Virus genome (UHGV): UHGV-0087155
Origin: a virus
Direction: 5' to 3' (one strand)
DNA length: 35,280 nt
Below, piece by piece: positions 14,833 to 34,337 of the stretch (position 1 is its first letter; each line of letters starts with the position of its first letter). The position numbers were made by a program, and so were the translations under genes. The notes beneath the pieces were generated by a model. It was not told the DNA's origin and did not search any database. It worked only from the letters and a program-made list of their open reading frames with translations.

Positions 14833-16132
14833 TCTGGCGTATGCCGCACGCCTCCCGCCAAAGGAGGCTGTCGCGTATTTCCGCGCCAAAGGCTACAACA
14901 TCACCTGGAACTGGTACGAACAACTGGCAGACGCGCACGCACGCGCCTTTACCGTTGCCAAAGCCACCCGGATGGATGTACTGACCACAATCCGTGAGGA
15001 AGTGGAGCGGGCTGTCAGTGAAGGCATCACCCGTGAGGAATTTACCCGCACACTGGCCCCCCGGCTGCAAAAACTCGGATGGTGGGGAAAACAAATCATC
15101 GTGGATGCAGAGGGAAACGCGAAGGAAATCGAACTGGGCAGTCCGCGTCGTCTGGCAACCATTTATGACGTCAACACCCGTACAGCATATGCGGCGGGAC
15201 GTTATGCGCAGATGATGAACACGGCGGACCTGTATCCGTTCTGGCAGTACGTTGTTGTCGAAGATGGCAGAACGCGCCCGGAACACCTCTTGCTGCGCAA
15301 TATGGTTTTCCGGTGTGACGATATTTTCTGGCAGACGCATTACCCGCCGAACGGCTGGCGCTGCCGCTGTCGCGTCCGGGCGCTGTCTGCGGCCCGCATG
15401 AAAGAGCTGGGGTTACAGGTCAGTTATGGTGCGTCATTCATGAATACCCGCGAAGTGGATGCCGGTACGGATGAAAGCACCGGAGAGATTTTCCGCACAT
15501 CGTCAACCACGTTTGACAACGGTCGGGTAAAAATGACGCCGGATGTGGGCTGGTCATATAACCCCGGTTCGGCGGCATTTGGTACGGATCAGGCACTGAT
15601 TCGAAAACTGGTGGAAGTTCGTGACGCGCAGCTGCGTGAGCAGGTTGTTCAGACGCTGAATAACAGCCGGGAGCGTCAGCTTGCTTTTTCCCTCTGGCTT
15701 AAACGCCTGGCAGGATCACGTCAGACCGGTCATGAAATCCGGGCGCTGGGGTTTATGACGGGATCCGTGGCTGAAGCCGTATATCAGCGCACCGGGAATA
15801 TGCCAGCCCGTCTGCTTGTAATGAACGGGAAAAGTCTGGCGACCACTGCTGATGCCGCCCTGAAACCGGAAGATTTACAGCGTCTGCCGTCGCTGATGGC
15901 AAAACCACAGGCGGTATTGTGGGACAGGGAGAACCACCAGTTGCTGTATGTTGTGGCAACCCGTGACGGCACGGCCCGGATTGTGGTCAGAACATCACAG
16001 ACAGTCGGCAGGCAGAATGACCGGGCGGATGTGCTGGTCAGTATCAGCCGCGTATCTGCACAGTCGCTTGAAGCCGCGATTGCTGACGGGATGATTGACA
16101 TACTGGAGGGGCATGTGGAGGTGAATAAGTGA
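14813..16132 (+). CDS. F: head morphogenesis protein F (439 aa)
   Basis: ATG 14813 (MPQQTIDLAYAARLPP...), overlapping the portal 3' end; Mu gpF-like. Confidence 0.85.
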   Translation: MPQQTIDLAYAARLPPKEAVAYFRAKGYNITWNWYEQLADAHARAFTVAKATRMDVLTTIREEVERAVSEGITREEFTRTLAPRLQKLGWWGKQIIVDAEGNAKEIELGSPRRLATIYDVNTRTAYAAGRYAQMMNTADLYPFWQYVVVEDGRTRPEHLLLRNMVFRCDDIFWQTHYPPNGWRCRCRVRALSAARMKELGLQVSYGASFMNTREVDAGTDESTGEIFRTSSTTFDNGRVKMTPDVGWSYNPGSAAFGTDQALIRKLVEVRDAQLREQVVQTLNNSRERQLAFSLWLKRLAGSRQTGHEIRALGFMTGSVAEAVYQRTGNMPARLLVMNGKSLATTADAALKPEDLQRLPSLMAKPQAVLWDRENHQLLYVVATRDGTARIVVRTSQTVGRQNDRADVLVSISRVSAQSLEAAIADGMIDILEGHVEVNK

Positions 16133-16599
16133 GTCTTGATATGAACGTTGCCGTGGATGTGCGACGTATTCAGCTTGCGCTGGATGAACTGGGAACCGTC
16201 ACACATGACCGCGTCATTCCCCGTGTGATGGCTGCGGCGCTGCTGTCATCCACGGAACAGGCATTTGAACGGCAGGCAGACCCGGATACAGGGAAAGGCT
16301 GGGAAGCGTGGAGCGATTCGTGGCTGGCATGGCGTCAGGATCATGGTTTTGTTCCGGGCAGTATCCTTACCCTGCATGGCGATCTGGCACGCAGCATTAC
16401 CACCGATTATGGACAGGATTATGCCCTGATTGGTTCGCCAAAAATTTATGCTGCCATTCATCAGTGGGGCGGTACACCCGATATGGCACCCCGCCCGGCA
16501 GGCGTTCCTGCGCGTCCTTATATGGGGCTGGATAAGACCGGGGAACAGGAAATTTTTGATGCCATCAGAAAACGCGTCAGCGCCGCTCTGAGGCAATAA
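16129..16599 (+). CDS. G: virion morphogenesis protein G (156 aa)
   Basis: GTG 16129 six nt after GGAGGTGA (alternative ATG 16141); Mu gpG-like. Confidence 0.8.
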   Translation: MSLDMNVAVDVRRIQLALDELGTVTHDRVIPRVMAAALLSSTEQAFERQADPDTGKGWEAWSDSWLAWRQDHGFVPGSILTLHGDLARSITTDYGQDYALIGSPKIYAAIHQWGGTPDMAPRPAGVPARPYMGLDKTGEQEIFDAIRKRVSAALRQ

Positions 16600-16646
16600 A
16601 CAGAATCAGGCATAAAATCAGCCGCACAGATTTTTTAAAACGCGCC

Positions 16647-16688
16647 ACGGGATTTTTAAACCGGTATTTAACGGTGTATGAATCCCGT
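16647..16688 (+). terminator. long-loop hairpin after G (terminator-like)
   Basis: Perfect 8-bp inverted repeat ACGGGATT (16647-16654) / AATCCCGT (16681-16688) around a 26-nt AT-rich loop, followed by TTTAT. Confidence 0.35.
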
Positions 16689-16728
16689 TTTATCTTCCTT
16701 CCACTTTCTTTCTCCAGTACTCAAATAG

Positions 16729-16795
16729 CATAACCCCAGATTTTCCCGCACCTCCCGCAAACTGACTGCTCACAAACCATGATGAGCAGCAGGAC
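16729..16795 (+). promoter_or_regulatory. candidate C-dependent late promoter P_I
   Basis: CATAACCCCAGATTTTCCCGCACCTCCCGC at 16729-16758 shares ATAA-CCC / CCCGCACCT-CC with the element upstream of lys; lies in the 196-bp spacer before gene I. Confidence 0.45.
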
Positions 16796-17881
16796 ATGAA
16801 AAAACACGCGATTGGCATTGCCGCACTGAGTGCGCTGTCCATTGACGATGACGGCTGGTGCCAGCTATTGCCTGCCGGTCATTTCAGTGCCCGTGATGGT
16901 CGTCCGTTTGATGTGACAGGCGGTCAGGGGTGGTTCATCGACGGTGAGATTGCCGGGCGTCTGGTTGAAGGCGTTCGCGCGCTCAACCAGGACGTGCTGA
17001 TTGATTACGAGCATAACCAGCTACGTAAGGACAAAGGATTACCCCCGGAACAACTCGTCGCGGCTGGCTGGTTTAACGCCGATGAAATGCAGTGGCGTGA
17101 AGGTGAAGGATTATTTATCCACCCACGCTGGACGGCGGCGGCACAGCAGCGCATCGATGACGGCGAATTTGGTTATCTCTCTGCGGTTTTTCCGTATGAC
17201 ACCGCCACCGGTGCGGTGCTGCAAATCCGCCTTGCTGCGCTGACCAATGACCCCGGTGCCACCGGCATGAAAAAGCTGACCGCACTGGCGGCAGACCTTC
17301 CCGACATCCTTCAACAGGAGAACAAACCCATGAATGAAACGCTGCGCAAGCTGCTTGCGCGTCTTGGGGTGACGGTCCCCGAAAATGCAGACATCACCGA
17401 TGAACAGGCCAGCGCGGCCCTGAGTGCGTTTGATGCGCTCGAAACAGATGCCGGAAAAGTGGCGTCGTTATCCGCCGAACTGGAAAAGGCACAGAACGCC
17501 GCCGTTGACCTGACGAAATACGTCCCGGTGGAAAGCTACAACGCCGTGCTTGATGAACTGGCACAGGCCAAAGCACAAAGCGCCACTGCCAGCCTGAGCG
17601 CCGTTCTGGACAAGGCGGAGCAGGAAGGCCGCATTTTCAAAAGCGAACGTACCTATCTGGAACAGCTTGGCGGTCAGATTGGCGTGGCGGCACTGTCGGC
17701 ACAGCTTGAGAAAAAACAGCCCATCGCTGCGTTATCTGCCATGCAGACCACCACAGCGAAAATTCCGTCGCAGGAAAAACCGGCGGTGGCGGTGCTGTCT
17801 GCTGATGAACAGGCAGCAGTGAAGGCGCTCGGCATTACAGAGGCTGAGTATCTGAAAATGAAACAGGAACAAGAAAAATGA
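16796..17881 (+). CDS. I: head protease / scaffold protein I (361 aa), with the scaffold (Z) nested in the C-terminal part
   Basis: Mu gpI-like; C-terminal half is Ala/Gln/Glu-rich with repeated ALSA/LSAxL units typical of a scaffold domain. Confidence 0.85.
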   Translation: MKKHAIGIAALSALSIDDDGWCQLLPAGHFSARDGRPFDVTGGQGWFIDGEIAGRLVEGVRALNQDVLIDYEHNQLRKDKGLPPEQLVAAGWFNADEMQWREGEGLFIHPRWTAAAQQRIDDGEFGYLSAVFPYDTATGAVLQIRLAALTNDPGATGMKKLTALAADLPDILQQENKPMNETLRKLLARLGVTVPENADITDEQASAALSAFDALETDAGKVASLSAELEKAQNAAVDLTKYVPVESYNAVLDELAQAKAQSATASLSAVLDKAEQEGRIFKSERTYLEQLGGQIGVAALSAQLEKKQPIAALSAMQTTTAKIPSQEKPAVAVLSADEQAAVKALGITEAEYLKMKQEQEK

Positions 17882-18795
17882 TTGTCACCCCGGCATCCAT
17901 TAAAGCCCTGATGACCTCCTGGCGTAAGGATTTTCAGGGCGGTCTTGAAGACGCCCCGTCGCAGTACAGCAAAATTGCAATGGTGGTGAACTCTTCCACC
18001 CGCAGTAATACCTATGGCTGGCTGGGTAAATTCCCGACCCTGAAAGAATGGGTGGGTAAGCGAACCATTCAGCAAATGGAAGCGCATGGCTACTCCATCG
18101 CCAATAAAACGTTTGAAGGCACAGTGGGTATTTCCCGTGATGACTTCGAGGATGACAATCTGGGTATTTATGCGCCGATTTTTCAGGAGATGGGCCGTTC
18201 TGCGGCAGTTCAGCCGGATGAGCTGATTTTTAAACTTCTGAAAGATGGCTTTACCCAGCCCTGCTATGACGGTCAGAACTTCTTCGACAAGGAGCATCCG
18301 GTATATCCGAATGTGGACGGCACGGGCGACGCAACGAATACCTCCAACATCGTTGAACAGGACAGCTTCAGTGGTCTGCCATTCTATCTGCTGGACTGCT
18401 CCCGCGCAGTCAAACCGCTGATTTTCCAGGAGCGCCGCAAACCCGAACTGGTCGCACGTACCCGTATCGATGACGACCACGTTTTTATGGATAACGAGTT
18501 CCTGTTTGGTGCCAGCGCCCGCCGTGCTGCCGGTTACGGCTTCTGGCAGATGGCTGTCGCGGTAAAAGGCGATCTGACGCTGGATAACCTCTGGAAGGGC
18601 TGGCAACTGATGCGTGCGTTTGAAGGTGATGGCGGTAAGAAGCTGGGCCTGAAGCCGACACATATCGTTGTACCGGTCGGGCTGGAAAAAGCCGCAGAGC
18701 AACTGCTTAACCGTGAACTGTTCGCGGATGGCAATACCACCGTCTCCAACGAGATGAAGGGCAAGCTGCAACTGGTTGTCGCTGACTACCTGTAA
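17878..18795 (+). CDS. T: major capsid protein T (305 aa)
   Basis: Matches the Mu major head subunit in length and sequence; ATGA overlap with the I stop. Confidence 0.9.
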   Translation: MIVTPASIKALMTSWRKDFQGGLEDAPSQYSKIAMVVNSSTRSNTYGWLGKFPTLKEWVGKRTIQQMEAHGYSIANKTFEGTVGISRDDFEDDNLGIYAPIFQEMGRSAAVQPDELIFKLLKDGFTQPCYDGQNFFDKEHPVYPNVDGTGDATNTSNIVEQDSFSGLPFYLLDCSRAVKPLIFQERRKPELVARTRIDDDHVFMDNEFLFGASARRAAGYGFWQMAVAVKGDLTLDNLWKGWQLMRAFEGDGGKKLGLKPTHIVVPVGLEKAAEQLLNRELFADGNTTVSNEMKGKLQLVVADYL

Positions 18796-24947: not shown

Positions 24948-26435
24948 ATGTTTGAAGATGCTTTAAATGCCGTTAATGCTGTCCGGGATAAAACTGGTGG
25001 AGGCAGGAAAACAACCGGCAAAGGCACGTTCCGTAACGTGCCGTTTCTCGTCATCGAGGAGCAAAAACAGGCTGGCGGACGTCGCCTGGTTAAACGCGAG
25101 TACCCGTTACGTGATACCGGCGGCGTCAATGACCTGGGGAAAAAGCTTCGCTCCCGTACATTCAGCGCCTGCATTCTGAACAGCAACGCAGAAACAGCCA
25201 GAGATGAAGCGGGTGCGCTGATGGATGCTCTTGATGCTCCGGGTAGCGGTGAGCTGGTACATCCTGATTTCGGCACTGTGGACGTCATGGTGGATTCATG
25301 GGAATGCCGCACTAAAGCGGATGAACTGAATTATTACGCATTCACCGTTACCGTTTATCCGTCGTTGCAGGATACTGCCCCGGACTCAGAGACAGACACC
25401 AGTGCAGCCGTACCGGCACAGGCCGTTGCTGTAACCGGTTCTCTGGGAGATACGCTGTCCTCTGTCTGGCAGACCGTAAAAGATGGCACTGCGGCGGCAA
25501 CCGCCGTGATGGAAGCTGTAACCGGTGTCATCGATGATATCAGTGATGCGGTGGACAATCTGGGGGTTACGCAGACTGTCAGCGGTCTGATGGGATCGCT
25601 TTCTGCGATGAAAGGCTCTGTGACCAGCCTGATTAACCAGCCTGCCATGCTGGCCTCCTCGCTGATGGGGGCGCTGTCCGGCGTTTCATCGTTATGCGAT
25701 ACCCGGACAGCATTTTCCACCTGGAACCGTCTGGCGCAGCGATTCGAACGTCGCCATGCCGCCACCACAGGCAGACAGGGGACAATCACAACCTCGTACA
25801 ACAGTCCGGTTGCAGAAAAAAATATTGCCACACTGAACTACGTCATGCTGGCAGCGGCGCAGACATACCGGGCGGAGGCAGCAAGCCAGGCACTGACTGC
25901 GGCACTGGATTTCAGTCGCCGGATGGATAATGCCGCCCGTGCACCTGTACTGGATGCCCCGTCCACCACAACCGGCACAGCCAGCGTGGCCAGCAGCACA
26001 TCTGCTACCGTCACACAGGGACAGTTACAGTTAACTGCCATAACCCCGGACGGCGGCTTTTCACAGGTATCCTTTTCAGACAGTGGTACAGCCACGCCCC
26101 CGGTATTTGAAAGTGTGTCCGATATCGGAAAAACAGCCGCCATGCTGGGGGCTGCACTGGATACCGTCATTCTGACGGCATCTGAGCAGGGCTTTTCGAC
26201 AGACAGCGTTCAGCTTACGCAACTGCGTCTGCTGGTTGTTGCCGACCTGGAAAAACGCGGGCTGCAACTGGCGGGCAGTGAAACGCACCGCCTGCCGGAG
26301 ACGATGCCTGCAATGGTGGCCCTGTACCGTTACACAGGAAACAGCCGGAACTGGCAACGGCTGGCCCGCAGGAACGGTATCAGCAACCCGTTGTTTGTTC
26401 CCGGTGGTGTCAGTATTGAGGTGATTAATGAGTAA
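24948..26435 (+). CDS. N: DNA circularization protein N (495 aa)
   Basis: Size and position match Mu N, the injected protein that non-covalently circularises incoming Mu DNA. Confidence 0.8.
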
Positions 26436-27567
26436 TACCGTCACGCTGCGAACGGATGGCAGGCTTTTTACCGGCTGGACGTCAGTCTCTGTCACCCGCT
26501 CCATTGAATCCGTAGCCGGATATTTTGAGCTGGGGGTGAACGTGCCACCGGGCACGGATTTATCCGGGCTGGCACCGGGGAAGGCGTTCACGCTCGAAAT
26601 CGGGGGGCAGATTGTCTGCACCGGTTATATCGATTCACGGCGACGCCAGATGACCGCTGACAGTATGAAAATCACTGTCGCCGGACGTGACAAAACGGCT
26701 GACCTGATTGACTGTGCTGCCGTTTACAGTGGCGGACAGTGGAAAAACCGCACACTGGAGCAGATTGCGCGTGACCTGTGCACCCCTTATGGCGTTACCG
26801 TTCGCTGGGAGCTTTCCGATAAGGAAAGTTCGGCAGCTTTTCCCGGCTTCACGCTGGACCATTCAGAAACCGTTTATGAGGCGCTGGTGCGTGCCTCCCG
26901 CGCACGCGGTGTACTGATGACCAGCAATGCCGCCGGAGAGCTGGTATTCAGCCGGGCTGCCAGCACAGCCACTGATGAGCTGGTTCTCGGAGAAAATCTG
27001 CTGACACTGGATTTTGAGGAAGACTTCCGCGACCGGTTCAGCGAATACACCGTCAAGGGGTATGCCCGCGCAAACGGTGCTGAGGGTGATGATATTGATG
27101 CGAAAAGTATCGTCTCCCGGAAAGGGACCGCCACTGACAGTGATGTGACCCGTTACAGACCGATGATCATCATTGCCGACAGCAAAATTACGGCGAAGGA
27201 TGCACAGGCCCGCGCCCTGCGTGAGCAACGCCGCAGACTGGCAAAATCCATCACCTTTGAGGCTGAAATTGACGGATGGACTCGCAAGGACGGGCAACTC
27301 TGGATGCCGAACCTGCTGGTCACTATTGATGCCTCGAAATATGCCATCAAAACCACGGAATTACTGGCCAGCAAAGTCACCCTGATACTGAATGACCAGG
27401 ACGGGCTGAAAACCCGCGTCAGCCTTGCACCACGTGAAGGCTTTCTGGTGCCGGTTGAAAGCGACCGTAAAAACAGGAAAGGCGGCGACAGTAACGGCGG
27501 TATTGATGCGCTGGTTGAAGATTATTATCGCAGACACCCGGAGAAAACGCCGCCGTGGAAAGAGTAA
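26428..27567 (+). CDS. P: baseplate hub protein P (379 aa)
   Basis: Size and position match Mu P; GAGGTG RBS at 26418-26423. Confidence 0.85.
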
Positions 27568-28148
27568 ATGATTCCGCCCTGAACCGCCTGCTGACGCCGC
27601 TGATGCGTCGTGTGCGCCTGATGCTTGCGCGCGCTGTTGTTAACGTGATTAACGACGGGCGAAAGGTTCAGAACCTGCAGGTCGGTCTGCTGGATGATGA
27701 GGAATCCGATGAAGTGGAGCGCCTGCAAAATTACGGACATTTCAGCGTTCCCCTGCCGGGCGCAGAGGCGCTGATTGCCTGTGTGGGTGCACAACGTGAT
27801 CAGGGGATCGCCGTTGTGGTGGAAGACCGCCGCTACCGCCCGACAAATCTTGAACCGGGTGATGCAGGCATTTACCACCACGAGGGGCATCGTATCAGGC
27901 TGACAAAGGACGGACGCTGCATCATTACCTGTAAAACGGTTGAGGTTTACGCTGATGAAGGCGCGACCGTTGACACCCCGAAAGCCACGTTTACCGGAGA
28001 TGTTGAAATTCTGAACGGCCTCAGCGTTAAAGGTGAAAGTGACTTTGCAGGCAATATCAGCGCCCCGGATGCCATCATCAATGGCAAATCGACGGATAAG
28101 CATATCCACCGTGGCGACAGCGGCGGAACCACAGGGCCGATGCAATGA
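27555..28148 (+). CDS. baseplate spike / puncturing device protein (197 aa)
   Basis: GTG start overlapping the P 3' end; Mu gp45-like by size and order. Confidence 0.8.
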   Translation: MERVNDSALNRLLTPLMRRVRLMLARAVVNVINDGRKVQNLQVGLLDDEESDEVERLQNYGHFSVPLPGAEALIACVGAQRDQGIAVVVEDRRYRPTNLEPGDAGIYHHEGHRIRLTKDGRCIITCKTVEVYADEGATVDTPKATFTGDVEILNGLSVKGESDFAGNISAPDAIINGKSTDKHIHRGDSGGTTGPMQ

Positions 28149-28582
28149 CCGATTTAGCCATTATCTGGACGAACGGACGCGGCGATATTGCGCAGGATGG
28201 TATTGATATGCTGACCGACGACAGCCTGACAACCGATGTGACAATCTCCCTGTTTACCGACCGGCGCGCGCTGGATTCTGACACGCTGCCGGATGGTTCA
28301 GATGATCGCCGTGGATGGTGGGGTGACAGTTACCGCGACCGCCCCATCGGTTCGCGGTTGTGGCTGTTATCACGTGAAAAAGCCACGCCGGATACACTGG
28401 AACGCGCCAGAGGGTATGCCGAAGAGGCGCTGGAATGGCTGAAAACAGCGGGCCGGGTAAGTGCGATTAACGTCAGAGCGGAACAGTTACATCAGGGCTG
28501 GTTATACCTCTACATTGCACTGACATTACCGGATGGTTCCGTTATTCCTTATGAGTTTAAAGCAGCATTTAACGGGGTTTAA
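28145..28582 (+). CDS. baseplate protein, GP46-like (145 aa)
   Basis: ATGA overlap with the upstream gene; size and order as in the Mu baseplate cluster. Confidence 0.8.
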   Translation: MTDLAIIWTNGRGDIAQDGIDMLTDDSLTTDVTISLFTDRRALDSDTLPDGSDDRRGWWGDSYRDRPIGSRLWLLSREKATPDTLERARGYAEEALEWLKTAGRVSAINVRAEQLHQGWLYLYIALTLPDGSVIPYEFKAAFNGV

Positions 28583-29665
28583 ATGGCTTATTCACCACCG
28601 ACATTATCATCGCTGATTGCCCGTACAGAACAGAATATTGAACAGCGCCTGCCGGGTAGCTGGCCTCAGGCCCGTGAAAAAACGCTGAGTGCCATTGCTT
28701 ATGCTCAGGCGGGCCTTGCTGCCGGTTGTCACGAGCATATTTCATGGGTTGGACGGCAGATTATCCCGTCGACAGCAGATGAAGATGAGTTGCTGGAGCA
28801 CTGCCGGTTCTGGGGCGTGCGCCGCAAACAGGCGACAGCCGCCAGCGGCCCGCTGACTGTCACCACATCGGCAGCGACCACCATTCCTGCCGGTACACGC
28901 TGGCAGCGTGCTGATGGTGTGGTTTACAGCCTGGCTGATGCCATTGTGATTGACCGTGCAGGAACGACGGAAATTACCGTTACCGCACTGGCTGCCGGTG
29001 AAGCAGGAAATACCGGTGAGAATACCCTTTTAACGTTGATCACCCCGGTTGCCTGTGTTGTTTCCGATGCCATCACTGTAAAAGGGTTTTCCGGTGGGGC
29101 TGATATTGAGAGTGCAGCGGAGCTGCTGTCACGGCTGGAATATCGTGTCCAGTATCCTCCGTTCGGCGGTAATCAGTTTGATTACGTCCGCTGGGCACGT
29201 GAAGTCAGCGGCGTTACCCGTGCCTGGTGTTTTCCGACATGGAAAGGCGGTGGCACAGTCGGGGTGACGTTTGTTATGGATAACCGGAGCAATATTTTTC
29301 CACAACCGGCAGACGTGGAACGCGTGGCAGATTATATCGCCGGTCATACTGACCCGATCACCGGTCTGATTGTCGGACAGCCTGACGGTGTAAATGTCAC
29401 TGTATTTGCGCCAAAGGCAAAGCCGGTAAATCCACGGATTTATATATCACCGAAGACAGCCGAACTGAAACAGGCTATTACCCACGCCATTAATACCATG
29501 TTTTTTAATGAGGTGACGCCGGGCGGCGCACTTGCCCCCTCCCGTATTATCCGTGCGGTGGCAGGTGTTACCGGTCTGGATGATTTTGAAGTGCGTTTCC
29601 CGACAGAGATCCAGCGTTCGGAGAATACGGAACTGTTAACACCGGGGACAATTGAATGGCTGTAA
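28583..29665 (+). CDS. baseplate J-like wedge protein (360 aa)
   Basis: Size and order match Mu gp47. Confidence 0.85.
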   Translation: MAYSPPTLSSLIARTEQNIEQRLPGSWPQAREKTLSAIAYAQAGLAAGCHEHISWVGRQIIPSTADEDELLEHCRFWGVRRKQATAASGPLTVTTSAATTIPAGTRWQRADGVVYSLADAIVIDRAGTTEITVTALAAGEAGNTGENTLLTLITPVACVVSDAITVKGFSGGADIESAAELLSRLEYRVQYPPFGGNQFDYVRWAREVSGVTRAWCFPTWKGGGTVGVTFVMDNRSNIFPQPADVERVADYIAGHTDPITGLIVGQPDGVNVTVFAPKAKPVNPRIYISPKTAELKQAITHAINTMFFNEVTPGGALAPSRIIRAVAGVTGLDDFEVRFPTEIQRSENTELLTPGTIEWL

Positions 29666-30198
29666 CACCCTGGCAGACGGCCTTTCTGCAATTACTGCCG
29701 TCAGGGCTTGCCTGGAATAAAAGCCCCGACAGCAAATTATCTGCGCTGGCGCAGGCCATCAGCGACGTGATTGCCACTGCGGCGGATGATGCGCGGCAAA
29801 TGCTGCGGGAGCGTTTCCCGTCCACATCCCGCTGGTATCTGGGGGAGTGGGAATCATTTCTGGGGTTGCCGGACTGTACCAGCGAAAACGGCACCCTGTC
29901 CGAACGCCAGCGGGCTGCCGCGAATAAAATGCGTATGACCGGCAATCTGAGTCGGCGCTTTTATGAATGGCTGGCTGCGCAGTACGGTTTTACCGTCAGG
30001 CTGACGGATTCCACAGAAGGCCAGTGGGTTACGCAGGTCAATATTTACGGTATTAAAAATTATCGCAACGCAACGGTGCTGGATAATGTTCTGACGCCGT
30101 TACGTGTTTATGAATCGGGTGCGCTGGAATGTTTACTGGAGAAATATAAACCCGCGCATCAGATTTATAAATTTGTTTACCATGACGGAGATAACTAA
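29656..30198 (+). CDS. tail / baseplate protein (180 aa)
   Basis: Precedes the tail fibre gene as in Mu (gp48-like). Confidence 0.8.
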   Translation: MAVTPWQTAFLQLLPSGLAWNKSPDSKLSALAQAISDVIATAADDARQMLRERFPSTSRWYLGEWESFLGLPDCTSENGTLSERQRAAANKMRMTGNLSRRFYEWLAAQYGFTVRLTDSTEGQWVTQVNIYGIKNYRNATVLDNVLTPLRVYESGALECLLEKYKPAHQIYKFVYHDGDN

Positions 30199-31601
30199 TG
30201 TTTTATATTGATAACGACAGCGGCGTAACCGTCATGCCGCCCGTATCCGCCCAGCGTAGTGCTATCGTTCGCTGGTTTTCAGAAGGTGACGGGAATAATG
30301 TTATCACATGGCCCGGCATGGACTGGTTTAATATTGTGCAGGCGGAGTTATTAAACACGCTGGAAGAAGCCGGTATTCAACCGGATAAAACAAAATTAAA
30401 CCAGCTTGCACTGTCCATTAAAGCCATTATGAGCAATAACGCGCTGCTGATAAAAAATAACCTCAGCGAAATTAAAACTGCCGGGGCATCAGCACAGCGT
30501 ACAGCACGTGAAAATCTGGATATCTATGATGCCAGCCTGAACAAAAAAGGACTCGTTCAGCTAACCAGTGCCACTGACAGCCCCAGTGAAACGCTGGCAG
30601 CCACCGCAAAAGCGGTGAAAATTGCGATGGATAATGCCAATGCCCGTCTGGCAAAAGACCGGAACGGAGCAGATATTCCCAATAAGCCGCTGTTTATCCA
30701 AAACCTCGGTTTACAGGAAACGGTAAACAGGGCTGGTAACGCCGTGCAAAAAAATGGCGATACCTTGTCCGGTGGGCTTACTTTTGAAAATGACTCAATC
30801 CTTGCCTGGATTCGAAATACTGACTGGGCGAAGATTGGATTTAAAAATGATGCCGATGGTGACACTGATTCATACATGTGGTTTGAAACAGGCGACAACG
30901 GCAATGAATATTTCAAATGGAGAAGCCGCCAGAGCACCACAACAAAAGACCTGATGACGCTGAAATGGGATGCACTAAATATTCTGGTAAATGCCGTCAT
31001 TAATGGCAGTCTTGGAGTTGGTACGACGAATGCGTTAGGTGGTAGCTCTATTGTTCTTGGTGATAATGACACCGGATTTAAACAGAATGGAGACGGCATT
31101 CTGGATGTTTATGCTAATAGTCAGCGTGTATTCCGCTTTCAGAATGGAGTGGCTATTGCTTTTAAAAATATTCAGGCCGGGGATGGTAAAAAATTCACGC
31201 TATCCAGCTCCAACAACTCCACGAAGAACGTAGGGTTTAATTTATGGGGCGCTTCATCAAGACCAACTGTTGCAGAGCTTGGTGATGATTCAGGCTGGCA
31301 TTTCTATAGTCAGCGAAATACAGATAATTCGGTGATATTTGCTGTAAACGGTCACATACAACCAGGTAACTGGAGTAACTTTGATTCCCGATACGTAAAA
31401 GATGTTCGTCTTGGTTCACAGCAATATTATGGAGTGAACAACTGGCAAACATGGAATTTCCAGTGCCCGTCAGGTCATGTATTGTCTGGTATTAATGTTC
31501 AGGATACAGGGTCCAACTCTGCCGATAATATAGCGGGCGTTTATTACAGACCCGTTCAAAAGTATATAAATGGCACCTGGTATAATGTAGCGAGCGTTTA
31601 A
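30198..31601 (+). CDS. S: tail fibre protein S (467 aa): constant N-terminal part fused to the variable part encoded inside the G segment
   Basis: gixL lies inside this gene at 30694-30719; the residues right after the junction (QETVN) are shared with the start of the oppositely oriented S' ORF. Confidence 0.85.
30694..30719. repeat. gixL, left Gin recombination site
   Basis: TTATCCAAAACCTCGGTTTACAGGAA; its near-perfect inverted copy (two mismatches) is at 33640-33665. Confidence 0.8.
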
Positions 31602-31602
31602 T

Positions 31603-32130
31603 ATGATCCACTTAAAGAACATAAAAATTGGTAATGCTAAAACACCGGAGCAGTATGAGTTAACAAAGAAGCACGGAGTTATCTGGCTTTACTCTGAAGA
31701 CGGAAAAAACTGGTATGAGGAAGTGAAAAACTTTCAGCCAGACACAATAAAGATTGTTTACGATGCAAATAATATTATTGTCGCCATCACCAAAGATGCC
31801 TCCACGCTTAACCCTGAAGGTTATAGCGTCGTTGAGGTTCCTGATATTACAGCCAACCGCCGCGCTGATGATTCAGGAAAGTGGATGTTTAAGGATGGAG
31901 CTGTGGTTAAACGGATTTATACGGCAGACGAGCAACAACAACAGGCCGAATCACAAAAGGCCGTGTTACTTTCCGAAGCAGAAAGCGTTATTCAGCCACT
32001 GGAACGCGCTGTCAGGCTGAATATGGCGACGGATGAGGAACGCGCACGACTGGAGTCATGGGAACGCTACAGTGTTCTGGTCAGCCGTGTGGATACGGCA
32101 AATCCTGAATGGCCACAAAAGCCTGAATAA
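31603..32130 (+). CDS. U: tail fibre assembly protein U (175 aa)
   Basis: Follows S; paralogous to the minus-strand U' (both begin M-HLKNI... and share ...DGKNWYEE... and [12 protein letters not shown]). Confidence 0.8.
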
Positions 32131-32135
32131 AAATT

Positions 32136-32157
32136 AAGGCCCGATAGCGGGCCTTGT
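32136..32157. terminator. bidirectional hairpin between convergent U and U'
   Basis: GGCCCG (32138-32143), loop ATAG, CGGGCC (32148-32153), flanked by A/T on both sides. Confidence 0.5.
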
Positions 32158-32158
32158 T

Positions 32159-32692
32159 TCATTCTGGTTGTTCTGGAAACGTTACTGGCAGGCTGGAGGT
32201 GTCTGTGGATTCGACCTCCTGCGCATAGAGCATCCACTCGGTTAATTTTTGTTTATTCTCGTCGGAAATGATGCCCAGCCGTAGCTGTGAGTCCCATAGC
32301 TGGGTTTTATCCCTGACAAGTTGCAACAGGCTTTGCTTTTCATTCTCTGCCTGCTGCCTCTGTTCCTCTTCGGTATAAGTTCGCTTTATCACTACGCCAT
32401 CTTTGAACATCCATTTACCCGAAATATCAACCCGGCGATTTGCTGTAATATCAGGAACCTCAACGACGCTTGCGCCTTCTGGATTAATTGCTGAAACATC
32501 CTTTTCAATACAAATAATAACGCCGTTGTGGTCATAGACCATTTTCAACGTATCAGTCTGGAAATTCTTTTGTTCCTCATACCAGTTTTTTCCATCCTCT
32601 GTATAAAGCCATTTGATGTTAAATTGTTTCGTTAGCTGGTATTGCTCTTTTGTTTTAGGGTTGCCAGCAGTAATATTTTTTAAGTGCATCAT
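32159..32692 (-). CDS. alternative tail fibre assembly protein U' (177 aa)
   Basis: Minus-strand ORF with GGGGAG RBS; paralog of U. Confidence 0.8.
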   Translation of the reverse strand: MMHLKNITAGNPKTKEQYQLTKQFNIKWLYTEDGKNWYEEQKNFQTDTLKMVYDHNGVIICIEKDVSAINPEGASVVEVPDITANRRVDISGKWMFKDGVVIKRTYTEEEQRQQAENEKQSLLQLVRDKTQLWDSQLRLGIISDENKQKLTEWMLYAQEVESTDTSSLPVTFPEQPE

Positions 32693-32694
32693 AA

Positions 32695-33648
32695 TTAAAT
32701 ACTCCCCGCGTTATACCACGTTCCATTAATGCAATACTGAATTGGCCTTGCCTGAGTTGTATCAATTAATTCATCACGGTTCCCGTTAACTGAACCCGTA
32801 ACGACATAACCTGACCTGTCAGACCAGCCGGGACCATTCCATGTCTGAACAGATGACAGACCGCCAAGGCGAATACCTGTAATAAACCTTGAGTTACATT
32901 CTGCCTGCGTGTATGCACCAACATCTCCCGCTGAGGGTTTGCGGGTCGTGGTGTAAAACTCTGACCAGTCAGCCTCAAATCCATAACCATCACGCGCTGA
33001 ACGATAAAAAATACCGCCGTTCCTGTAATTCACGCGGAACTGTACAGCAGGGCAGCTCCCCGTATTCATATTGAAGTGGAGGATTAATGTCGATGCGCCA
33101 CCAATGTTTGCGTTATAGACCCCGCTATTCCAGTTCCAGCCAACAGCTTTATCATTTCCGACAGTGCTTCCTGTTTGCCCTAAAGCAAATGCAGGTTGTT
33201 GATTTTTCGTGTTGTAGTCTCGTCGCCAGCCAGGAGCATAAGCATCACCATGATTAATATAAGTGAATTGAGCGTTAGTAATTCCGCCACCGCTGGACGT
33301 GCTCGGCGTAGTAACGCGTATGGTCATTGCGCCGCGAGTGCCAATAACTTCCACCACAGCACCTGCAAGACAAATATTTCCGCAACCTGTATCTGTAATG
33401 ACCTTATTATTTGCATAAGCCCATGAGCCTTTGCACATCCAGTAAGGATGGTTAAATGCTCCCTGACTCTCCAGCCACGAAATAAATTGCGCGGTTGTCC
33501 AGACCTGACTATCGCCACCAATATTCAGCCATGCGCTATATGCGCGGCAGGCCCCAATATTTTTGGTGAAGGTATCTTTCCCCGGAATATCTGCGCCGTT
33601 CTGGTTTTTCTGTAATGCGCCAGAAGCCTGATTTACCGTTTCCTGCAA
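32695..33648 (-). CDS. alternative tail fibre variable part S'v (about 317 codons), no own start; expressed only after G inversion fuses it to the S constant part
   Basis: The ORF opens at the gixR boundary with TTG (not a real start) and begins QETVN like the S junction. Confidence 0.8.
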   Translation of the reverse strand: MQETVNQASGALQKNQNGADIPGKDTFTKNIGACRAYSAWLNIGGDSQVWTTAQFISWLESQGAFNHPYWMCKGSWAYANNKVITDTGCGNICLAGAVVEVIGTRGAMTIRVTTPSTSSGGGITNAQFTYINHGDAYAPGWRRDYNTKNQQPAFALGQTGSTVGNDKAVGWNWNSGVYNANIGGASTLILHFNMNTGSCPAVQFRVNYRNGGIFYRSARDGYGFEADWSEFYTTTRKPSAGDVGAYTQAECNSRFITGIRLGGLSSVQTWNGPGWSDRSGYVVTGSVNGNRDELIDTTQARPIQYCINGTWYNAGSI

Positions 33649-33665
33649 ACCGAGGTTTTAGATAA
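33640..33665. repeat. gixR, right Gin recombination site
   Basis: TTCCTGCAAACCGAGGTTTTAGATAA, inverted copy of gixL. Confidence 0.8.
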
Positions 33666-33719
33666 TGGTTGTTTCCGGCCTGCATGGCATGATTTGCGCT
33701 TTTAAACGGGAGATCCAGA

Positions 33720-34337
33720 GTGCTGATTGGCTATGTAAGGGTATCAACAAATGACCAGAATACAGACCTGCAACGAAACGCTCTTGTTTGTGCAGGATGT
33801 GAACAAATATTTGAAGATAAATTAAGCGGAACAAGGACAGACAGACCTGGATTAAAACGCGCGTTAAAGCGCCTTCAAAAAGGTGACACACTGGTTGTCT
33901 GGAAACTGGATCGCCTCGGGCGAAGCATGAAACATCTGATTTCCCTCGTCGGGGAACTACGGGAGCGAGGGATTAATTTTCGCAGTCTTACCGACAGCAT
34001 AGACACATCTTCTCCAATGGGGCGTTTTTTCTTCCACGTTATGGGTGCCCTGGCTGAAATGGAACGAGAACTAATCATCGAGCGAACGATGGCTGGACTT
34101 GCTGCCGCCAGAAATAAAGGCCGTATTGGTGGGCGACCACCTAAACTAACCAAAGCGGAATGGGAGCAGGCCGGGCGTTTATTAGCACAAGGAATCCCCC
34201 GCAAGCAGGTTGCATTGATCTATGATGTGGCTCTGTCAACTCTGTATAAAAAACACCCCGCGAAACGAACGCATATAGAAAACGACGATCGAATCAATCA
34301 AATCGATCGGCAATACAGATCGATTATGCCCCAATAA
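33720..34337 (+). CDS. gin: Gin serine invertase (205-aa ORF, GTG start)
   Basis: Matches Mu Gin (MLIGYVRVSTNDQNTDLQRNALVCAGCEQIFEDKLSG...), catalytic Ser in the VRVST motif; this ORF runs ~12 codons longer than I remember for Mu Gin. Confidence 0.95.
   Translation: MLIGYVRVSTNDQNTDLQRNALVCAGCEQIFEDKLSGTRTDRPGLKRALKRLQKGDTLVVWKLDRLGRSMKHLISLVGELRERGINFRSLTDSIDTSSPMGRFFFHVMGALAEMERELIIERTMAGLAAARNKGRIGGRPPKLTKAEWEQAGRLLAQGIPRKQVALIYDVALSTLYKKHPAKRTHIENDDRINQIDRQYRSIMPQ
34287..34321. promoter_or_regulatory. cluster of three GATC (Dam) sites upstream of the mom promoter
   Basis: GATC at 34287-34290, 34305-34308, 34318-34321; in Mu three Dam sites upstream of Pmom govern OxyR-mediated repression. 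A -10-like TAAGAT is at 34362-34367. Confidence 0.6.

Follow-up and report, generated by a model that had tools for sequence, protein, structure and literature searches.

The window, by which we mean the whole stretch of viral DNA analyzed here (35,280 nucleotides; UHGV virus genome UHGV-0087155), carries close to its center a noncoding spacer between gene G, which encodes a virion morphogenesis or neck protein, and gene I (Table 1). The stop codon of G (TAA) occupies 16597–16599 and the start codon of I (ATG) lies at 16796, leaving a spacer of 196 bp from 16600 to 16795. An earlier sequence-only reading of this DNA had described the spacer as the largest noncoding gap in the structural region, and this agrees with the annotation of phage Mu, in which the 196-bp G–I gap is the top internal intergenic gap genome-wide, followed by the 169-bp gap between c and ner. 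No Rfam family matched 16600–16795 at E ≤ 1. We consider it very likely, on the strength of the near identity to Mu described below, that the spacer is best explained as the Mu strong gyrase site (SGS), with a predicted terminator of the lys-to-G operon inside the right arm of that site and the C-dependent late promoter P_I downstream of it. The gyrase site reaches into G: the last ~47 bp of the gene are shared with its left arm and the first part of its core.

Table 1. Features of the G–I region, in positions of the window
Feature	Position	Strand	Remarks and source
Gene G (virion morphogenesis/neck protein)	16129–16599	+	ORF list; Mu annotation Mu_31
SGS left arm, −65 to −26	16553–16592		Inside the 3′ end of G; within the published 133-bp fragment; PMC6463007
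SGS core/gate segment, −25 to +25	16593–16642		Includes the first T6A4 tract, 16631–16640; PMC6463007
Central four bases AATC between two staggered gyrase cuts	16616–16619		GenBank; fragment register; PMC6463007 landmarks
SGS right arm, +26 to +85	16643–16702		DNase I-protected; phased A/T tracts; PMC6463007, PMC10052514, PMC11626157
Two-tier hairpin, predicted intrinsic terminator of the lys-to-G late operon	16647–16697	+	RNA fold; TransTermHP
Late promoter P_I, activated by Mu C protein	16717–16783	+	Mu 17977–18043, AF083977 (PMID 2522923)
C-binding dyad of P_I (proposed)	~16719–16734		
Shared CATAACCCC element of P_I	16729–16737		
−10-like CAAACT of P_I	16758–16763		
Ribosome-binding site (annotated), 16784–16786, and gene I ATG, 16796	16784–16798	+	ORF list; AF083977
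Gene I	16796–17881		ORF list

Identity of the window

When the whole window was compared with phage records by megablast, its matches were the Escherichia phages PhiR68_1, D108, and Mu, with 93–95% coverage and 97–98% identity. The window is thus a Mu-type transposable phage (Muvirus) with an overall identity of ~97.5% to Mu and D108. Relative to the Mu record it begins ~1 kb inside the left end and ends ~65 bp short of the right end, and the two are collinear from Plys through P_P, where the offset between the window and Mu (AF083977) is constant at 1260 bases. The spacer itself is identical to GenBank Mu (NC_000929, AF083977) at 195 of 196 bases. The sole difference, at 16701 (C in the window, T in Mu; position +84), lies at the distal margin of the right arm protected from DNase, beyond the 40 nt that have been described as essential.

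Two departures from Mu were seen elsewhere in the window. Firstly, the offset of 1260 found at Plys, P_I, and P_P becomes 1372 at Pmom (window ~26100–34320 compared), and therefore the window is ~112 bp shorter than Mu somewhere between P_P and Pmom; this deficit is placed in the tail-fibre/invertible G-segment/gin region. Secondly, the first ~430 bases (1–432) do not align with Mu or D108 at the megablast level but do align with PhiR68_1, a pattern compatible with a different variant there, at the early-region end.

The strong gyrase site

The sequence-only reading had stated that Mu carries a strong gyrase-binding site near its center, between G and I, and had put this spacer forward as a candidate for it. 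Three independent sources coincide on the place and register of the site. In both Mu records (NC_000929, AF083977) the misc_feature "gyrase cut site" is placed at 17879^17880, equivalent to 16619^16620 of the window, so that the mapped site falls in the G–I spacer and not elsewhere, as the candidate assignment supposed. The published 133-bp "Mu SGS" fragment (Sutormin et al., PMC6379681, Table S2) corresponds to the minus strand of window 16552–16684 with 132 of 133 matches, and placing it on the 133-bp gyrase consensus of the same study yields AATC at 16616–16619 as the central four bases. Finally, a center between 16617 and 16618 accommodates every landmark reported by Rovinskiy et al. (PMC6463007), namely +3 A at 16620 and +7G +8C at 16624/16625 on the top strand, and −3 T at 16615 and −7G −8C at 16611/16610 on the bottom strand. 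The assignment of each strand's cut to one edge of AATC is putative. The annotated cut site lies at 47.1% of the window, close to the ~47% that had been estimated for the spacer, and, as ~1 kb is missing from the left end of the window, at ~48% of the full genome.

The sole mismatch to the 133-bp fragment is at 16621, which is 2 nt rightward of the annotated cut; the window agrees with the GenBank Mu records in having G at this position, and the fragment has C. For the Topo-Seq work (PMC6379681) the SGS cassette was obtained by amplification from pMP1000, a plasmid said to contain a nuB mutant SGS, and in the Mu literature the nuA and nuB mutant DNAs are cleaved at the strong site more efficiently than the wild type. 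The nuB mutations are a possible source of the mismatch, but the transitions described for them, at ±3, do not fit it exactly.

We took the boundaries of the arms from PMC6463007 and transferred them to the window through the fixed register. The cleavage center AATC is found 17–20 nt past the G stop codon and ~30 bp upstream of the hairpin. The gyrase site is not confined to the spacer as had been supposed: the cut in the core and the right arm are inside it, but the left arm, reported to be dispensable (PMC6463007), extends leftwards into the 3′ end of G. The essential arm is the right one (PMC10052514; PMC6463007), of which the first 40 nt, window 16643–16682, are reported to be essential (PMC6463007). 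The right arm contains the phased A/T tracts, alternating with G/C at ~10.5–11 bp, that characterize the Mu SGS. The T/A runs pointed out in the sequence-only reading are present, TTTTTTAAAA at 16631–16640 and TTTTTAAA at 16653–16660. Given the boundaries of the right arm (16643–16702), the hairpin noted in that reading (16647–16688) is part of this essential arm, and what was described as its A/T-rich "loop" corresponds to the phased bending signals of the arm.

The feature is therefore the textbook Mu strong gyrase site, and it was already known. It is, to our knowledge, the strongest natural gyrase site, and it serves as a standard substrate in gyrase biochemistry, single-molecule work, and cryoEM. 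The Mu SGS explains how a 37-kb transposable prophage unites its ends; its occurrence in the window only confirms that the phage is of Mu type and has its central site intact, and yields no new biology. The locus agrees with the Mu SGS in its location between G and I at ~48% of the genome, in its cut register, and in its phased right arm.

It is well established that Mu DNA has a single strong site of gyrase cleavage, where quinolone-induced cuts are staggered by 4 bp (PMC10052514; PMC6379681), and its cleavage position is reproduced by Topo-Seq in vivo (PMC6379681). Deletion of the SGS delays Mu replication by ~100 minutes; the optimal location of the site is central, and without it Mu is blocked at synapsis and strand transfer of its ends (PMC10052514; PMC3820752). 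With gyrase alone, the DNase I footprint extends from +26 to +85 (PMC6463007). In the cryoEM structure of gyrase on a 217-bp Mu SGS fragment, the right arm is chirally wrapped around one GyrA C-terminal domain, with the minor groove of the A/T repeats towards the protein and the G/C repeats outward, and presents the T-segment (PMC11626157). By sequence identity, the gyrase cleavage and the replication phenotype described in the Mu literature would carry over to this phage. Host DNA gyrase would bind a site of ~150 bp and cleave around AATC, and the A/T tracts of the right arm, alternating with G/C blocks, would wrap one GyrA C-terminal pinwheel and present the T-segment. This wrapping would give rise to very stable gyrase binding and highly processive supercoiling, and from its central place in a ~37-kb prophage the site would bring about the formation of a supercoiled loop or domain that joins the left and right ends of Mu, permitting transpososome assembly and replicative transposition.

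Other strong gyrase sites share the general architecture. The pSC101 (par) and pBR322 sites and the genome-wide Topo-Seq motif likewise span ~130–150 bp with a central cleavage region and, like the Mu SGS, have periodic A/T–G/C flanks that wrap GyrA C-terminal domains. However, the pSC101 and pBR322 sites, unlike the Mu SGS, do not support Mu replication (PMC10052514). No sequence homology between the Mu SGS and these two plasmid sites was found, and none is expected.

Sequence statistics of the phased tracts

Generic sequence statistics by themselves do not single out the gyrase site. The 10–11 bp A/T periodicity at the SGS is at the 99.7th percentile of 50-bp windows and is not the maximum of the window, so generic A/T periodicity is not diagnostic. 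When the window was scanned crudely with the gyrase consensus of 133 bp from the literature, scored by identity, W/S match, and correlation of the W pattern, the SGS ranked at best 234 of 70,296, so this consensus proxy is too crude; the Mu site itself agrees with the crude consensus at 42 of 133 positions (z 1.6), a moderate match.

A more specific description is given by the junctions between T-tracts and A, which fall at 16636, 16657, and 16669, with spacings of 21 and 12. A triple of such junctions spaced 20–22 and then 10–12 bp apart is present a single time in the 35-kb window, counting both strands, and in 1 of 300 dinucleotide-preserving shuffles, a figure that is descriptive since the pattern was defined after the sequences had been viewed. 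A search keyed on the starts of the T-runs gave no matches, because run lengths differ, and was replaced by the key on the T/A junction.

Conservation among Mu-like phages

Among complete E. coli genomes, 272 of 5426 match the region and 44 cover it fully. Relatives were gathered with G and I as anchors, which gave 72 loci whose G proteins are 51–99% identical to that of the window. A G–I spacer is present in all 72 loci and measures 184–251 bp, with one exception of 688 bp. In 23 viral contigs of 33–41 kb the spacer is located at a median of 0.496 of the length, and in 19 of them it is within 0.45–0.55. The junction triple is found in 29 of the 44 distinct spacers and keeps its distance from the G stop (+34 to 39, +54 to 59, and +65 to 71), except that in L051 it is ~30 nt further downstream; the remaining spacers carry degenerate versions of it. 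A near gap-free alignment of 17 lineages gave the consensus AAAATC-TTTTAAACGCG-(N8-9)-TTTTTGAACGGG-TTTTGAACGGG with ten invariant columns, and the array (16630–16675) holds 1.15 bits per column as compared to 0.53–0.61 in the flanking spacer. Within the spacer, conservation is thus highest in the phased TTTT(A/G)AA-CG(G/C)G array, and the family as a whole does not keep the Mu hairpin. Since the array is conserved and the hairpin pairs are not, we conclude that selection acts mainly on the double-stranded right-arm array. In close relatives, with G proteins 97–99% identical, substitutions cluster in 16600–16629, and the right arm has one change, in one sequence.

These comparisons are the modest addition of this study, in that the right-arm array, and not the Mu hairpin, is conserved over 17 diverged lineages, which agrees with published genetics showing that the right arm is the essential part. 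Oram and Pato reportedly described SGS-like sites of Mu-like prophages in 2004 (cited in PMC3820752 and PMC10052514), and the family-wide conservation of the array is said to have been partly anticipated there. The SGS-like spacers of Mu-like prophages (e.g., Sp18-type, E. coli O157:H7) likewise measure 184–251 bp, lie near the center, and have phased T/A tracts equally far from the G stop. Their core and distal sequences have diverged from Mu, and most lineages have direct TTTTGAACGGG tandem repeats in place of the Mu palindrome. Only the O157 Sakai site has been reported to be able to replace the Mu SGS (review, PMC10052514).

Some of these loci have individual features. The 688-bp spacer (L040 1675–2362; IMGVR_UViG_2645727590_000012) keeps the phased TTTTTGAAA array intact directly after G, so an insertion probably separates the gyrase-site-like array from gene I. 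Polymorphisms in the near-identical Mu relatives L012, L015, L016, L017, L022, and L023 cluster in the left half of the core, for example at 16602, 16610, 16614, and 16623; L015 has a 1-bp insertion in 16600–16629, and neither the central AATC nor the right arm is changed across L012, L015–L017, L022, and L023. Two loci of O157:H7 type carry a RefSeq "tRNA-OTHER" on the minus strand between an F-like head morphogenesis gene and G (L005 765–845; L006 810–889); Mu has no comparable annotation, and there F and G overlap.

It is possible, though we regard it as doubtful, that the right arm is a sequence-specific signature of the whole family that goes beyond generically bendable DNA. The putative signature consists of three phased TTTT(A/G)AA-CG(G/C)G motifs, spaced 20–21 and then 11–12 bp apart at ~+35 to +70 nt from the G stop, and is retained in enterobacterial Mu-like phages with G proteins only 51–70% identical. 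If its conservation arose because the GyrA C-terminal domain or some other factor recognizes it specifically, the signature would offer an in silico predictor of strong gyrase sites and defined natural variants with which to dissect how gyrase gains its processivity. A related but unlikely explanation is that the motifs bind another protein (Fis, IHF, HU, or a phage DNA-binding protein) besides or instead of providing bendability for gyrase wrapping. The ten columns invariant in 17 lineages speak for it, as this is conservation of sequence beyond A/T versus G/C, and so does the requirement of the Mu domain for IHF, Fis, and HU (PMC3820752). However, the cryoEM orientation already assigns the A/T minor groove to the GyrA C-terminal domain and turns G/C outward (PMC11626157), gyrase alone accounts for the DNase I protection of the arm (PMC6463007), and no further binding protein has been mapped at the Mu SGS.

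The hairpin and the predicted terminator

The sequence-only reading had also called attention to a perfect 8-bp inverted repeat around a long A/T-rich loop and had suggested that a terminator of the G operon is located in the spacer. The repeat is present as described (ACGGGATT at 16647–16654 and AATCCCGT at 16681–16688, with a 26-nt loop, 65% A/T). The window has 37 such 8-bp inverted repeats with loops of 3–40 nt (20 ± 6.5 in shuffles), so the repeat alone is not significant. It forms part of a longer two-tier hairpin with stems of 9 bp (16647–16655/16680–16688) and 4 bp (16660–16663/16672–16675), interrupted by a 4 × 4 internal loop and closed by a terminal loop of 8 nt, which is followed by UUUUAUCUU. 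The extended hairpin has a predicted fold of −19.8 kcal/mol (z = −3.4), equaled by none of 200 shuffles. A simple terminator scan did not detect it because the stem is long and interrupted. A terminator is annotated in AF083977 at Mu 17908–17953, which corresponds to window 16648–16693; the suggestion of a terminator is upheld to this extent, but the annotation is a computational TransTermHP prediction only. A search of the literature yielded no mapped transcript 3′ ends for this U-tract. The hairpin is most likely an intrinsic terminator in Mu itself, and its use as a terminator there would plausibly be a secondary use of the right-arm DNA.

A conserved RNA hairpin was sought in 17 lineages with RNAalifold and by explicit pair counting and was rejected, as neither structure nor covariation above controls was found. 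RNAalifold predicted zero pairs for the Mu hairpin across these lineages, and 41.6% of cells form the Mu pairs compared to 38.4% in shuffles, with slid controls no worse. O157:H7-type prophages retain the two-tier hairpin with changed bases (z −3.8), and the 84%-identical PEC422 prophage does not retain it (z −0.6). Several other lineages have a hairpin and T-run of their own at nonhomologous positions, and several have none.

The hairpin DNA can also be read as an imperfect 42-bp palindrome (16647–16688) that acts as a DNA cruciform or a dimeric operator and not as an RNA terminator. Its arms, of 20 nt each, show 80% complementarity and are separated by 2 nt, its single-stranded DNA fold is −10.9 kcal/mol (z −2.9), and gyrase strongly negatively supercoils the site. 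Nevertheless, we find this very improbable in view of the fact that the palindrome is made up mostly of self-complementary TTTAAA and CCGG pieces of the phased array, is missing in most lineages, which have direct repeats there, and is followed on the coding strand by a U-rich tail.

The late promoter P_I and the start of gene I

Downstream of the right arm, the segment 16717–16783 is identical at 67 of 67 bases to the annotated Mu P_I, which places the promoter of gene I in the spacer as the sequence-only reading had proposed. The C-rich element resembling a late promoter that was noted in the same reading (~16731–16760) lies within this identical stretch and separates the C site from the −10. 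The positions given for the parts of P_I in Table 1 are putative assignments derived from alignment on Plys and Pmom. The element CATAAyCCC is common to P_I, Plys, and P_P, and Pmom has CAATAACCA instead; no difference was detected between the promoter in the window and the C-dependent late promoters of Mu (Plys, P_I, P_P, and Pmom). The C protein binds a 16-bp imperfect dyad centered at −43.5, and these promoters have no −35 hexamers (PMC2582627). A sigma-70 consensus scan of the spacer found no ordinary promoter and did not detect P_I, which is expected because P_I is activator dependent and lacks a −35 hexamer.

That the spacer is an ordinary operon boundary, with incidental A/T tracts and no functional gyrase site in this phage, is scarcely credible: the hairpin does have a U-rich tail, P_I is identical, and neither the 8-bp repeat nor the generic periodicity is statistically unique, but the experimentally mapped Mu site is matched except for one distal base and what the family conserves is the phased array and not the hairpin.

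A further perfect inverted repeat, of 7 bp (CTGCTCA/TGAGCAG, 10-nt loop), is found at 16766–16789 and overlaps the annotated ribosome-binding site of gene I (16784–16786). It surrounds the probable start of transcription from P_I (~16770) and so may not be fully transcribed. This repeat is retained in part in the PEC422 prophage.
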